Assembly: GCF_003334385.1 (NCBI RefSeq)
Contig: NZ_QOWN01000009.1
Strand: one strand, 5' to 3'
DNA: 64,000 nt
Origin: Escherichia coli
GTDB lineage: Bacteria > Pseudomonadota > Gammaproteobacteria > Enterobacterales > Enterobacteriaceae
In this document: piece by piece, positions 1,854 to 3,020 of the stretch
Layout: each line of letters opens with the position of its first letter
How positions within the stretch are numbered: position 1 is the first letter of the stretch
Made by a program: the position numbers and the translations under genes
The notes under the pieces: model-generated
The model's database searches: none
The model's input: only the letters and a program-made list of their open reading frames with translations
What the model was told of the DNA's origin: nothing

Positions 1854-2593
1854 GTAACTGGCCTTATCCCCGCATCGTCGCTCATCGTGGCGGCGGTAAG
1901 CTGGCCCCGGAAAACACCCTGGCGGCAATCGACGTCGGGGCAAAATACGGTCATAAGATGATCGAATTTGACGCGAAGTTATCGAAAGATGGCGAGATCT
2001 TCCTGCTCCATGACGACAATCTCGAACGTACCAGCAACGGCTGGGGCGTCGCGGGTGAACTGAACTGGCAGGATTTACTGCGCGTGGATGCGGGCAGTTG
2101 GTACAGCAAAATGTTTAAAGGTGAGCCGCTACCGTTGCTTTCGCAGGTGGCGGAACGTTGCCGCGAACACGGGATGATGGCGAATATCGAAATCAAACCC
2201 ACCACCGGCACCGGGCCATTAACGGGCAAAATGGTGGCGCTGGCGGCACGCGAGCTGTGGGCCGGTATGACGCCGCCGCTGCTGTCATCGTTTGAGATTG
2301 ATGCTTTAGAAGCTGCACAACAGGCGGCACCGGAACTGCCGCGCGGTTTGTTGCTGGATGAGTGGCGCGACGACTGGCGCGAACTGACCGCGCGGCTGGG
2401 CTGCGTCTCTATTCATCTCAATCATAAGTTACTCAATAAAGCGCGAGTGATGCAGTTGAAAGACGCCGGACTGCGGATTCTGGTTTATACCGTCAATAAA
2501 CCCCAGCGCGCAGCAGAGTTGCTGCGCTGGGGTGTGGATTGCATCTGTACCGATGCGATTGACGTGATTGGTCCGAACTTTACGGCCCAATAG
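1850..2593 (+). CDS. ugpQ: glycerophosphodiester phosphodiesterase UgpQ
   Basis: 247-aa ORF with the GDPD-family N-terminus (HRGGG...ENT); ATGA overlap with the ugpC stop. Confidence 0.93.
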
Positions 2594-3020
2594 TTTTCAA
2601 CGGAATGTCAGGCTGCGGCGTGCTGGGCTGATTCAGCATGTCGCCGTTTCTCCTCTCCGGCAGCATATGCTGCTGATTCAACGAACTATCCGGATTACGG
2701 TTGCTGTTTAACATCCCGCCGTTGGTGTTGGGCAGCATTTGCTGCCGGGCGGGATTTCGCTCCCCCGGCTGTGACTGCAACACCCGCTGAGAATTATTGT
2801 TTATCTGGTTTTCTAAATGCTGCTGTTGCAACTGAGTTTGCGTTTTCAGTTGCTGATTCAGCATCCCTTTTTGCTGGATTTGCTGAGTCTGCATCTGGGT
2901 TTGCATCCGCTGCTGGCTGGGTATCTGATACCCCGGCTGGTTAGGGTTGTTCAGAGTATTAATGGGCTGTGCAAAGCCGACAAACGGCAGGAGTGCCGTA
3001 AGAATCAGAAGTCGTTTCAT
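2580..3020 (-). CDS. yhhA: Gln/Asn-rich secreted protein YhhA
   Basis: 146-aa ORF with an N-terminal signal peptide ([17 protein letters not shown]) followed by a low-complexity Q/N-rich region; position between ugpQ and ggt. Confidence 0.8.

Follow-up and report, generated by a model that had tools for sequence, protein, structure and literature searches.

YhhA of Escherichia coli, a conserved Gln/Asn-rich DUF2756 protein with a predicted polar helix and disordered tail

The closest described system is YhhA of E. coli K-12 itself, represented by the families DUF2756 (PF10956) and PRK10350 (NF007675); the protein described here is a full-length equivalog match to the same family, and we found no difference from it. 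An RpoS genomic-SELEX peak lies within the ggt/yhhA spacer (PMC5493296), yhhA is listed in the RpoS regulon after cold downshift (PMC4057180), and the gene is induced alongside rpoS as cells pass into stationary phase (PMC2241611). It is also induced by a LolCDE inhibitor (PMC5105897) and by multiple stressors, oxidative stress included (PMC9501238). Induction of the yhhA transcript tracks RpoS at stationary-phase entry and under several stresses. The protein has been detected in published proteomes, and in a surface/periplasm-enriched extract of Shiga toxin-producing E. coli (STEC) YhhA was among the 15 most abundant proteins, in a list that also holds HdeB, PsiF, YmgD, ZraP, Ivy, and SodC (PMC9731836). 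The genes yhhA and ugpQ have been named as an excludon pair (PMC12288877). E. coli has many small RpoS-dependent envelope proteins without an assigned function, and YhhA is among them: a literature search found no functional study of yhhA (b3448) or DUF2756, and no yhhA deletion phenotype is reported in the literature searched.

The copy described here lies in a window of 64,000 nucleotides (the whole stretch of DNA that was analyzed) from E. coli contig NZ_QOWN01000009.1. The feature is the already annotated and already known gene yhhA, and the present work is a correct description of that gene rather than a discovery. Its anatomy makes mutational tests easy to design, since the polar helix and the C terminus are both conserved and the Met-Leu motifs number five. 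Feature coordinates are collected in Table 1.

Table 1. Features of yhhA and its flanks in the window
Feature	Positions	Strand	Basis and remarks
yhhA coding sequence	2580..3020	minus	146 codons plus TAA stop at 2580-2582; ATG start; ORF list, RefSeq
Predicted Sec-type signal peptide, residues 1-17	2970..3020	minus	n/h/c regions and -3/-1 rule; putative cleavage before Gln18
Conserved Asn/Pro-rich N-terminal mature segment, residues 18-33	2922..2969	minus	Low pLDDT; N24, N27, P29, and P34 strongly conserved
Predicted Gln-rich polar helix, residues 34-82, conserved core of DUF2756	2775..2921	minus	AlphaFold2; near-invariant residues
Pro/Asn-rich, probably disordered C-terminal tail, residues 83-146	2583..2774	minus	Low pLDDT; conserved ML columns and IPLKTIGP
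24-aa repeat unit 1, residues 92-115	2676..2747	minus	Local alignment to unit 2; 15-nt direct repeats 72 nt apart; these 72 nt are missing from E. albertii
24-aa repeat unit 2, residues 116-139	2604..2675	minus	Local alignment to unit 1; 15-nt direct repeats 72 nt apart; E. albertii comparison
Overlap of convergent 3' ends, yhhA (-) and ugpQ (+)	2580..2593	.	14 bp; ORF coordinates
Shine-Dalgarno sequence AGAGGAGG (coding strand)	3028..3035	minus	GGAGG, 7-8 nt before ATG; read from sequence
Candidate sigma-S type -10 element GTAAACTTAA (coding strand)	3047..3056	minus	Conserved block; putative assignment

Locus, family, and conservation

RefSeq labels the gene "yhhA: DUF2756 family protein." The translation scores 265 bits against NCBIfam NF007675 (cutoff, 136) over residues 1 to 146 and matches Pfam PF10956 with an E value of 1.1e-60 over residues 1 to 105; other Pfam families appeared only at noise level (CemA and ThsA_Macro; E about 0.15). 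An earlier note, made by reading the DNA, had given the name YhhA and a length of 146 aa, and the RefSeq label, the NF007675 match, and the open reading frame agree with both. At the DNA level, this copy is 100% identical to those of many sequenced strains, and yhhA is present in 5425 of 5426 complete E. coli genomes, K-12 laboratory strains included. Gene order is ggt <> yhhA >< ugpQ; the position of yhhA between ggt and ugpQ is orthologous, and the order ggt-yhhA-ugpQ is also kept in a genus whose YhhA shares 46% protein identity. The short overlap with ugpQ is annotated likewise in three other strains. A functional tie to ggt, with Ggt acting on the N-terminal Gln of YhhA, was considered and rejected, because Ggt requires a free alpha-carboxyl on its gamma-glutamyl donor.

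Against three divergent E. coli strains, yhhA had dN/dS values of 0.04 to 0.06, equal to those of ugpQ and ugpC in the same strain pairs. DUF2756 is a narrow family, with 65 representatives at 50% identity among 1.84 billion proteins and named members in Escherichia, Salmonella, Citrobacter, Enterobacter, Buttiauxella, Erwinia, and Apirhabdus. One distant member adjoins mlaFEDC instead of ggt and ugpQ. By these comparisons, yhhA is a genuine core gene, under strong constraint in E. coli and in related Enterobacteriaceae and Erwiniaceae.

Individual glutamines of YhhA are conserved across the same two families. Near-invariant residues of the predicted helix across genera are P34, Q37, R38, M43, Q46, Q47, Q50, L54, Q56, Q61, Q66, L69, and Q72. 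Residues 34 to 82 form a conserved module and not drifting low-complexity sequence. No residue but M43 is invariant in the family, and conservation extends to the other Met positions. In the DUF2756 alignment, the ML columns and the C-terminal IPLKTIGP are conserved wherever the tail is present; short, distant homologues (87 to 110 aa) lack it. Among the least conserved helix positions are T41, T45, T60, and T62, the threonines of TQ pairs, while their Gln partners are conserved.

Upstream signals and export

The AGGAGGA upstream of yhhA is conserved in a distant genus, and the ribosome-binding site is strong. The candidate -10 block is conserved between E. coli and the homologue with 46% protein identity, and CTACACT and CTAAACT occur at an equal upstream distance in two other loci. 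A simple scan upstream of yhhA for a sigma-70 promoter returned nothing.

A clear signal peptide had also been claimed in the earlier note, and the N terminus conforms to the rules for a Sec signal peptide cleaved by signal peptidase I. The call comes from rules alone (a basic n-region, at least 10 residues of hydrophobic core, small residues at -3 and -1, no lipobox): the N terminus has two basic residues (MKR), an 11-residue hydrophobic core with a mean Kyte-Doolittle value of 2.73, and a predicted cleavage site G-F-A|Q with Gly at -3, Ala at -1, and no lipobox Cys. In the family alignment, Ala17 is nearly invariant, and Gln18 and Pro19 are also conserved. Export to the periplasm is thus predicted, and the abundance of YhhA in the envelope-enriched STEC extract lends it indirect support. 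A preprint placed YhhA among six proteins caught from lysate in a ppApp pull-down; we discounted this capture as nonphysiological for a basic protein that is predicted to be exported.

Composition, predicted structure, and length

The mature protein (~14.7 kDa) is basic (pI 10.4) and strongly hydrophilic (GRAVY -1.40), with one aromatic residue and no Cys. It consists of 22.5% Q, 14.0% N, and 10.9% P; at 36% Gln plus Asn, the Q/N-rich composition described in the earlier note is evident, and it is an odd one. Q+N density peaks at 36 per 80-aa window (residues 21 to 100). A census of Q/N-rich domains is said to have used a criterion of at least 30 Q+N per 80 residues, and YhhA lies above that value.

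The loose repeats reported in the same note fared unevenly against 20,000 composition-preserving shuffles. Its Q-x-Q units (8 observed versus 6.2 expected; P = 0.25) are explained by composition alone, whereas MLN (3 versus 0.09; P = 1e-4) and LNQQ (2 versus 0.08; P = 0.003) exceed it. ML itself (5 versus 0.65 expected) and ML[NP] (5 versus 0.16) were each reached by 0 of 20,000 shuffles; in fuller form, the motifs are five conserved (G/Q)-x-M-L-(N/P) copies, four of them in the C-terminal tail. [ST]Q was mildly enriched (7 versus 3.4; P = 0.02). Overall self-similarity is weakly above chance, with an off-diagonal Smith-Waterman score of 75 versus 55 +/- 9.6 in shuffles, 8 of 300 of which reached 75. 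The alignment of the two 24-aa units suggests that the tail was built from a degenerate duplication of ~24 aa. At the DNA level, Tandem Repeats Finder (minimum score, 30) returned 0 rows for yhhA, and the gene is therefore not a slippage-prone microsatellite. Direct repeats within it are imperfect and 13 to 37 nt long, runs of identical codons do not exceed 2, and Gln codons are mixed (22 CAG to 7 CAA).

AlphaFold2 modeled YhhA without a globular fold (pTM 0.28). Residues 34 to 82 form a single 49-residue helix with pLDDT of about 90 (blocks, 73 to 94). Residues 18 to 33 have pLDDT of about 52 to 56, falling below 50 at residues 17 to 19 only, and residues 83 to 146 are mostly below 50. A total of 60 of 146 residues have pLDDT below 50, although pLDDT serves as no more than a proxy for disorder. 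On a charge-hydropathy plot, every segment lies on the disordered side of the boundary. The proline-free 49-residue core is 49% Q/N, and the tail is 15.6% proline. YhhA is best modeled as one long, polar, Gln-rich helix followed by a probably disordered Pro/Asn-rich tail. A profile search of the PDB found no solved-structure relatives (best E value, 0.35, to an unrelated histidine-kinase fragment).

A coiled coil and an amphipathic helix were both considered for residues 34 to 82 and rejected on periodicity and hydrophobic moment. Fourier power at a period of 3.5 was near zero for hydropathy and conservation alike, giving no heptad periodicity, and the helix has no hydrophobic face (moment at 102.9 degrees, 0.07 versus 0.117 in shuffles). 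In a tandem two-helix AlphaFold2 construct with a 30-residue linker, which is a crude test, both helices were kept (pLDDT, 60 to 68; pTM, 0.32) and no confident helix-helix packing was seen.

Length is nearly fixed among strains. At least 20 in-frame length alleles exist, all very rare, spanning 96 to 163 aa. Scored by loss of identity or coverage of a 183-nt probe, indels of at least 5 aa occur in at most about 6 of 5425 complete genomes (4 records at 80 to 90% identity and 2 below 80% coverage). The canonical span was found in 59 of 59 evenly rank-sampled genome matches and in 19 of 19 in another sample, bottom rows excluded; the bottom-ranked genome in both samples is one strain with a yhhA-ugpQ deletion. 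Spans of 184 nt were considered as 1-nt indels and rejected as alignment-edge artifacts: in APEC O1, of the same lineage, the coding sequence is 441 nt long and collinear codon by codon. E. albertii yhhA lacks exactly one 24-aa unit (72 nt; repeat unit 1). A 33-nt duplication, a 51-nt deletion, and a 72-nt deletion found in yhhA alleles are each flanked by short direct repeats, and the rare length alleles are best read as by-products of replication slippage between such repeats, with no regulated variable-repeat mechanism behind them. With no tandem array and no frequent length polymorphism, yhhA is not a variable-repeat (contingency) locus.

These results divide the remaining claims of the earlier note. 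Its proposal of intrinsic disorder is supported by the lack of a globular domain and by the low-pLDDT tail but not by the most Q-rich part of the protein, which is the confidently predicted helix. For the scaffold-like role that it had put forward as an alternative, we saw no sign of self-association: the helix showed neither heptad periodicity nor an amphipathic face, and the tandem-helix model gave no confident packing. Repeat-length variation across strains, which it had named as a check, was essentially absent. A well-folded conserved domain together with a lack of such variation had been named as what would speak against its reading; length proved invariant in nearly all strains, and no well-folded domain was found.

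Possible functions and relation to known systems

The account that we favor describes YhhA as a constrained, exported, nonglobular stress protein that serves as a nonenzymatic periplasmic protectant or holdase and whose length alleles derive from slippage; taken whole, it falls somewhat short of an even chance. Abundant under stress, YhhA would protect or bind other molecules in the periplasm in the manner of a holdase. Its Met-Leu motifs might provide small, flexible, hydrophobic contact points, and the Gln/Asn/Pro-rich sequence would keep YhhA and any bound material hydrated and soluble. This protectant or holdase mechanism, taken alone, is tentative and open to considerable doubt; it draws on an analogy with small, abundant, ATP-independent periplasmic stress proteins and with flexible Met-rich binding surfaces, in which homology plays no part. 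If YhhA were a nonglobular periplasmic protectant or chaperone, it would join the short list of ATP-independent envelope quality-control factors of Gram-negative bacteria.

The high positional conservation of individual glutamines and of IPLKTIGP is explained no less well by a specific partner than by promiscuous binding. It is possible, though unlikely, that YhhA is a specific adaptor or regulator whose short linear motifs (N-terminal NNPNQPGY, the five ML(N/P) copies, and IPLKTIGP at the C terminus) dock onto a single defined partner in the envelope (a protease, a peptidoglycan enzyme, or a component of the outer membrane, for instance), with the polar helix as a spacer of about 7 nm. Position-specific conservation in all long family members, extreme C terminus included, would be consistent with docking, as would the multivalent, conserved ML motifs and a dN/dS of about 0.05, a value not usually seen in a protein that works by bulk properties alone. 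However, no partner is indicated: the ggt and ugpQ neighbors look like inherited synteny, and the distant member beside mlaFEDC lacks them. The short, distant homologues are without the entire tail and C-terminal motif, so a tail-dependent interaction cannot be the ancestral function of YhhA. A C-terminal Pro, as in YhhA, is not typical of PDZ ligands, which also counts against docking. Self-assembly of a Q/N-rich protein into a gel, condensate, or amyloid-like material, in the periplasm or at the cell surface in stationary phase, would draw on the Q+N density, the proline-free core, the abundance of YhhA in envelope extracts, and a central helix with two flexible ends that permits network formation. 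We consider it quite unlikely, given a core predicted with high confidence to be helical and not beta, a tail proline content that disfavors amyloid, the lack of confident packing in the tandem-helix model, and the absence of a curli-type repeat or CsgA/CsgB homology. One form of it, a periplasmic Q/N-rich gel or condensate stress protein that builds a hydrated network via Met-Leu "stickers" and the Gln-rich helix at stationary-phase concentrations, is very unlikely. If it were true, the network would alter the material state of the periplasm and guard the envelope in desiccation, osmotic, and acid stress, and YhhA would correspond, in the periplasm, to the Q/N-rich stress proteins of eukaryotes that form gels or condensates.

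The methionines might instead act as a redox buffer, with sacrificial Met repaired by MsrP, or bind Cu(I) through thioether ligands. The seven Met residues (5.4% of the mature protein), the invariant M43, the conservation of the other Met positions, and induction by several stresses, including oxidative stress, are consistent with either role; we nevertheless regard both as highly improbable. YhhA has no MxM or MxxM clusters like those of known periplasmic copper proteins (it has one M-x3-M and two His), the conserved unit is Met-Leu and not Met alone, and copper- or redox-specific regulation was not found in the literature searched. A preprint lists YhhA as an experimentally validated type III secretion effector of pathogenic E. 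coli, a label taken from SecretEPDB, and notes clustered S/T-Q motifs that would mimic substrates of the host ATM kinase (bioRxiv 10.1101/364117). The mild [ST]Q enrichment agrees with that clustering, but the Thr residues of the TQ pairs are poorly conserved while the Gln residues are conserved, the Sec-type signal peptide would route YhhA to the periplasm and not to the injectisome, and the gene occurs in nearly all complete E. coli genomes, K-12 included, as well as in Erwinia and other genera, nonpathogens among them. Leakage could plausibly place an abundant periplasmic protein in culture supernatants, and a literature search found no supporting text for YhhA as an effector; this reading is already disfavored and, in our view, extremely unlikely. 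We give next to no credence to YhhA as a domesticated relative, or a functional like, of phage Rz-type inner-membrane spanins with a periplasm-spanning helix. Three distant DUF2756 members match "Rz-like spanin" PHROG families (E values, 4e-4 to 0.075), and the gene for one homologue (P0168) sits between terminase and capsid genes in a phage-like region. The E. coli protein itself, however, matches no PHROG spanin family, its N terminus resembles a cleavable signal peptide and not a membrane anchor, and yhhA has no embedded or adjacent lipoprotein ORF (no same-strand lipobox ORF). Neither yhhA, with its ugp and ggt neighbors, nor the P0168 locus carries a lysis cassette. No relatives were found in 2.9 million viral contigs (IMG/VR); the three tblastn matches in phage GenBank all come from Salmonella, and at least two of these records are chromosomal contigs (about 0.5 Mb), while P0168 matched nothing there. 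The best explanation of the PHROG matches is a common layout, in which a hydrophobic segment at the N terminus precedes a Gln/Arg-rich helix.

Set beside known systems, YhhA as a putative protectant or holdase shows only partial likenesses. With Rz-type i-spanins it shares a hydrophobic N-terminal segment that leads into a long polar helix predicted to lie in the periplasm, whereas it has a signal peptide of the cleavable type, no o-spanin partner, and no lysis genes. Like Q/N-rich prion-like domains and CsgA/CsgB, it has a Q/N density above the census threshold, is predicted to be secreted, and contains imperfect repeats; unlike them, it is predicted to be helical and not beta-rich, and it has a proline-rich tail and no curli repeat signature. 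The likeness to hydrophilins and LEA-type desiccation and osmotic-stress proteins, with tardigrade CAHS proteins as an example of a layout in which a helix has disordered ends, lies in hydrophilicity, a predicted nonglobular state, high helical propensity, and induction in stationary phase and stress. Hydrophilins are reportedly defined by a hydrophilicity index above 1 and more than 6% Gly, and YhhA falls outside that definition with 5.4% Gly in the mature protein; its helix is also not amphipathic, its predicted compartment is the periplasm, and there is no homology. In comparison with Spy/CpxP/ZraP and HdeA/HdeB, which are small ATP-independent periplasmic stress proteins of E. coli, YhhA has no sequence or profile similarity, its helix lacks the hydrophobic face expected of the amphipathic helices in those proteins, and it is under RpoS and not Cpx, Bae, or Zra. 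Even so, it resembles these proteins in being small, Sec-exported (by prediction), stress-induced, abundant, and largely helical and/or conditionally disordered; it was detected together with HdeB and ZraP in surface/periplasm-enriched extracts, and its level changed along with that of Spy in a Salmonella proteome.

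Identity, composition, and predicted structure of YhhA

The gene name yhhA given in the earlier note agrees with the RefSeq annotation and with the family models: the NCBIfam equivalog NF007675/PRK10350 covers the full-length protein (265 bits; cut-off, 136), and Pfam DUF2756 matches residues 1 to 105 (E = 1e-60). The 801 bases around the gene were matched in 5,425 of 5,426 complete E. coli genomes, with 96 to 100% identity in full-length matches among the rows shown and 19 records in the 90 to 95% band. Matches were always chromosomal, annotated as "yhhA: DUF2756 family protein," and flanked by ugpQ and ggt; both gene and family are already annotated in databases. 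Features of the window and of two comparison loci are collected in the table, including the 146-codon open reading frame (ORF), whose ATG is preceded at 7 to 8 nt by AGAGGAGG.

Positions of yhhA and of associated features
Feature	Sequence	Position	Strand
yhhA ORF, ATG start (ORF call)	window	2580-3020	minus
yhhA/ugpQ 3' overlap (14 bp)	window	2580-2593	
Expected antisense yhhA transcription into ugpQ	window	2400-2580	minus
Terminator-like hairpin	window	2615-2644	plus
GCGAGTAAACTTAA, candidate sigma-S-type -10	window	3047-3056	
TAAGCCTGGT, ggt/yhhA spacer	window	3095-3104	
ggt 5' end with in-frame indel	window	3140-3240	
AT-rich island	window	4920-7323	minus
Deletion of yhhA and ugpQ 3' ends	L001 (E. 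coli A16)	2531-3347	
Gene for distant homologue P0168	L008 (metagenome contig)	5001-5264	

A Sec-type signal peptide is well supported by the sequence. The N terminus, which lacks Cys, follows classical Sec/signal peptidase I rules in having two basic residues and a hydrophobic core of 11 residues, with Gly at -3 and Ala at -1. Ala17, Gln18, and Pro19 are conserved throughout the family alignment. The mature protein (129 residues) contains 22.5% Gln, 14% Asn, and 10.9% Pro, with one aromatic residue and no Cys, a pI of 10.4, and a GRAVY of -1.40. Its best 80-residue stretch holds 36 Gln plus Asn; the 77 long ORFs in the window average 11. The earlier description of a signal peptide followed by Q/N-rich sequence was correct.

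The repeat units proposed in that note fared unevenly when mature YhhA was compared with 20,000 shuffles of the same sequence. Q-x-Q reflects no more than composition (8 observed, 6.2 expected; P = 0.25), while MLN (3 observed, 0.09 expected; P = 1e-4) and LNQQ (2 observed, 0.08 expected; P = 0.003) are real but degenerate. No shuffle reached the five occurrences of ML (0.65 expected) or of ML(N/P) (0.16 expected), and Leu follows five of the seven mature Met residues. Overall self-similarity was weakly above composition (score of 75 versus 55 ± 9.6; reached by 8 of 300 shuffles). The clearest repeat is an ~24-residue duplication (residues 92 to 115 versus 116 to 139), and residues 28 to 40 show a fainter likeness to 84 to 96. 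No DNA tandem array was found in yhhA, just imperfect direct repeats of 13 to 37 nt, and Gln codons are mixed, with a longest single-codon run of two.

AlphaFold2, run with a 32-sequence family alignment, predicted no tertiary fold (pTM of 0.28), charge-hydropathy analysis placed every segment on the disordered side, and a structure-relative search found no related solved structure; YhhA is thus well supported as non-globular, with a predicted helix plus tail. The single 49-residue helix spans residues 34 to 82 (block pLDDT of 73 to 94), residues 18 to 33 have a pLDDT of about 52 to 56 (below 50 at 17 to 19 only), and most of residues 83 to 146 fall below 50. The earlier suggestion of intrinsic disorder is partly supported: the protein is non-globular, but a truly disordered look is confined to its low-pLDDT ends, and its most Gln-rich part is predicted to be a conserved helix-forming module. 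Power at a period of 3.5 residues was almost nil for both hydropathy and conservation along this helix, and at 100, 102.9, and 98.2° its hydrophobic moment was no different from that of shuffles, which does not fit a canonical coiled coil or an amphipathic helix.

Conservation and length variation

DUF2756 is narrow: a set of 1.84 billion proteins yielded 65 representatives at 50% identity, many of which are fragments, and a larger collection gave 467 clusters at 90% identity. Named members come from Escherichia, Salmonella, Citrobacter, Enterobacter, Yokenella, Phytobacter, Buttiauxella, Erwinia, and Apirhabdus. Residues P34, Q37, R38, Q46, Q47, Q50, L54, Q56, Q61, Q66, L69, and Q72 are nearly invariant between genera, M43 is fully invariant in the family alignment, and Q-P-G (84 to 86), which closes the conserved run, is strongly conserved. 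Alignment of long members also supports conservation of the ML(N/P) motifs and of a 12-residue C-terminal motif that includes IPLKTIGP. Short distant members (87 to 110 amino acids [aa]) end shortly after the helix, so that the tail is a lineage-specific addition that duplication has built. In three divergent E. coli strains, each compared with the window, dN/dS for yhhA was 0.037 to 0.057, and that for ugpQ and ugpC in the same pairs was 0.035 to 0.079, indicating ordinary strong purifying selection and not relaxed low-complexity drift.

Variation in repeat length among strains, proposed as a check in the earlier note, is rare: within E. coli, YhhA has an effectively fixed length, which differs between species. 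Among complete genomes sampled at even spacing down the match ranking, the canonical span was found in 19 of 20 rows with the 801-nt query and in 59 of 60 with a 501-nt query. The bottom row in both samples was one strain with a deletion of the yhhA and ugpQ 3' ends. That deletion, in the otter isolate A16, makes the sole clear yhhA pseudogene among the sampled rows, and ugpE is frameshifted nearby. With a 183-nt query (residues 30 to 90), 4 records at 80 to 90% identity and 2 below 80% coverage stood out among 5,425 genomes, so that indels of about 5 aa or more occur in roughly 0.1%. Smaller indels lie below about 4%, a figure bounded by the sample only.

A big protein collection nevertheless holds at least 20 different E. 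coli length alleles, all in frame (96 to 163 aa), with most indels in residues 38 to 70, and a 29-residue duplication allele occurs in Salmonella. Some metagenome-derived variants may be assembly errors. The rare length alleles arise by slippage, and three variants followed at the DNA level look like its classical products. A 157-aa E. coli allele carries a 33-nt tandem duplication bounded by GCAAA microhomology, a 129-aa E. coli allele has a 51-nt deletion bounded by the imperfect 12-nt repeats ATGCAGACTCAG and ACGCAAACTCAG, and the gene for a 122-aa protein of E. albertii is missing exactly 72 nt, one 24-aa unit, bounded by the two GCAGCA(A/T)ATGCTGC repeats. A 3-codon in-frame indel between strains was observed at the ggt 5' end (comparison loci L003 and L004), within an Ala/Pro run just past the signal peptide (SAAAAPPAPPVSY in the window versus STVAAPPVSY in APEC O1).

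Genomic neighborhood and expression

The arrangement of yhhA, divergent from ggt and convergent with ugpQ-ugpCEAB, is retained in a distant enterobacterial genome. A second distant member is likewise convergent with a GDPD gene, a third adjoins mlaFEDC, and a fourth lies within a phage-like region; nothing in the neighborhood is indicative of function. This fourth member, the distant homologue P0168 (87 aa; JGI contig Ga0157361_1000017), carries a signal peptide of its own and a CTAAACT element resembling a -10. Its gene lies on the opposite strand between the large terminase gene and the capsid/portal genes, with a thioesterase gene as neighbor. It is moron-like, and no further viral-contig copies were found.

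No terminator was found in a scan downstream of the yhhA stop codon, and transcripts should therefore run antisense into ugpQ; yhhA-ugpQ has been named as an "excludon" pair (PMC12288877). Annotations of other E. coli strains show the overlap as well, and two distant genera lack it (gaps of 35 and about 700 bp). Located 22 nt past the ugpQ stop, the terminator-like hairpin has 13 pairs and a weak T-run and may be the ugp operon terminator, embedded antisense in yhhA. The AT-rich island has a G+C content of 33.6%, compared to 51 to 57% in yhhA, ugpQ, and ggt. One of its products, of 392 aa, matches the type VI secretion tube protein TssD/Hcp over residues 1 to 147 (TIGR03344; E = 4e-34) and continues into a long C-terminal extension that includes the HNH-like sequence HHKLSLDDGG...N...EPYH. 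Next come a YrhA-family protein (NF038335) and YrhB, and the island resembles an orphan module of Hcp-toxin and immunity protein.

A simple scan found no sigma-70 promoter upstream of yhhA. The sigma-S -10 consensus is CTAYACT then TAA. Since the upstream blocks resemble it, we infer that GCGAGTAAACTTAA, located about 30 nt before the ATG, is a candidate sigma-S-type -10; it is identical in a homologue of 46% protein identity, and CTACACT and CTAAACT occupy the equivalent place in two other distant members. The spacer element TAAGCCTGGT (119-bp divergent spacer), identical in the genus with 46% YhhA identity, could be a ggt element or the site of a regulator.

Transcript induction following RpoS and stress is well supported. 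An RpoS holoenzyme genomic-SELEX peak lies in the ggt/yhhA spacer (PMC5493296), yhhA is listed with the members of the RpoS regulon that cold downshift induces (PMC4057180), and in O157:H7 its expression climbs along with that of rpoS as exponential growth gives way to stationary phase (PMC2241611). It is also induced by a LolCDE inhibitor (PMC5105897), by mild acid (PMC2270276, PMC7824302), and in several stress data sets (PMC9501238). Mass spectrometry has detected the protein in both E. coli and Salmonella (PMC9927464, PMC4265081), and yhhA is a real, constrained, expressed gene.

Proposed identities and possible function

A 2018 preprint (bioRxiv 10.1101/364117) presented YhhA as an "experimentally validated" EPEC type III effector mimicking ATM-kinase substrates, a label that we traced to a database. 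The Sec signal peptide, occurrence in virtually all E. coli and also in Erwinia, and poor conservation of Thr relative to Gln in TQ pairs all argue against this claim, which we reject. Distant homologues P0168, P0180, and P0172 weakly match four different "Rz-like spanin" PHROG families (E = 4e-4 to 0.075). These matches are probably compositional (a hydrophobic N terminus, then a Gln/Arg-rich helix). We also reject a spanin identity: the E. coli protein has no spanin PHROG match, and a membrane anchor, o-spanin ORF, and lysis genes are lacking; no relatives were found in viral contigs. YhhA was also one of only six E. coli proteins captured from lysate by a ppApp photoaffinity probe (bioRxiv 10.1101/2021.12.15.472736). 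Such binding is odd for a predicted exported protein and probably not physiological, and the capture may reflect a sticky, basic, disordered protein.

Considering that YhhA has no catalytic-looking residues, Cys, or fold, it would act non-enzymatically in the periplasm. YhhA may self-assemble as a gel, condensate, or amyloid, but we do not favor this reading, because the core is predicted to be helical, the tail is proline rich, and no confident packing appeared in a crude two-copy model (residues 28 to 90 twice, a 30-residue Gly/Ser linker, paired alignments) that kept the helices at a pLDDT lowered to 60 to 68 (pTM of 0.32). A specific adaptor docking on one partner through the ML(N/P) motifs is the main rival, and we give it a low probability, close to that of the reading favored below: strong positional conservation would suit an adaptor as well as a protectant, but the tail is absent from distant members. 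Our favored reading, held tentatively, is an abundant stress-phase protectant or holdase-type binder, in which the Met-Leu motifs would serve as weak, flexible points of hydrophobic contact, while hydration of the complexes would be maintained by the Gln/Asn/Pro-rich sequence. In a surface/periplasm-enriched STEC extract, YhhA was within the 15 most abundant proteins, together with HdeB, PsiF, YmgD, ZraP, Ivy, and SodC (PMC9731836).
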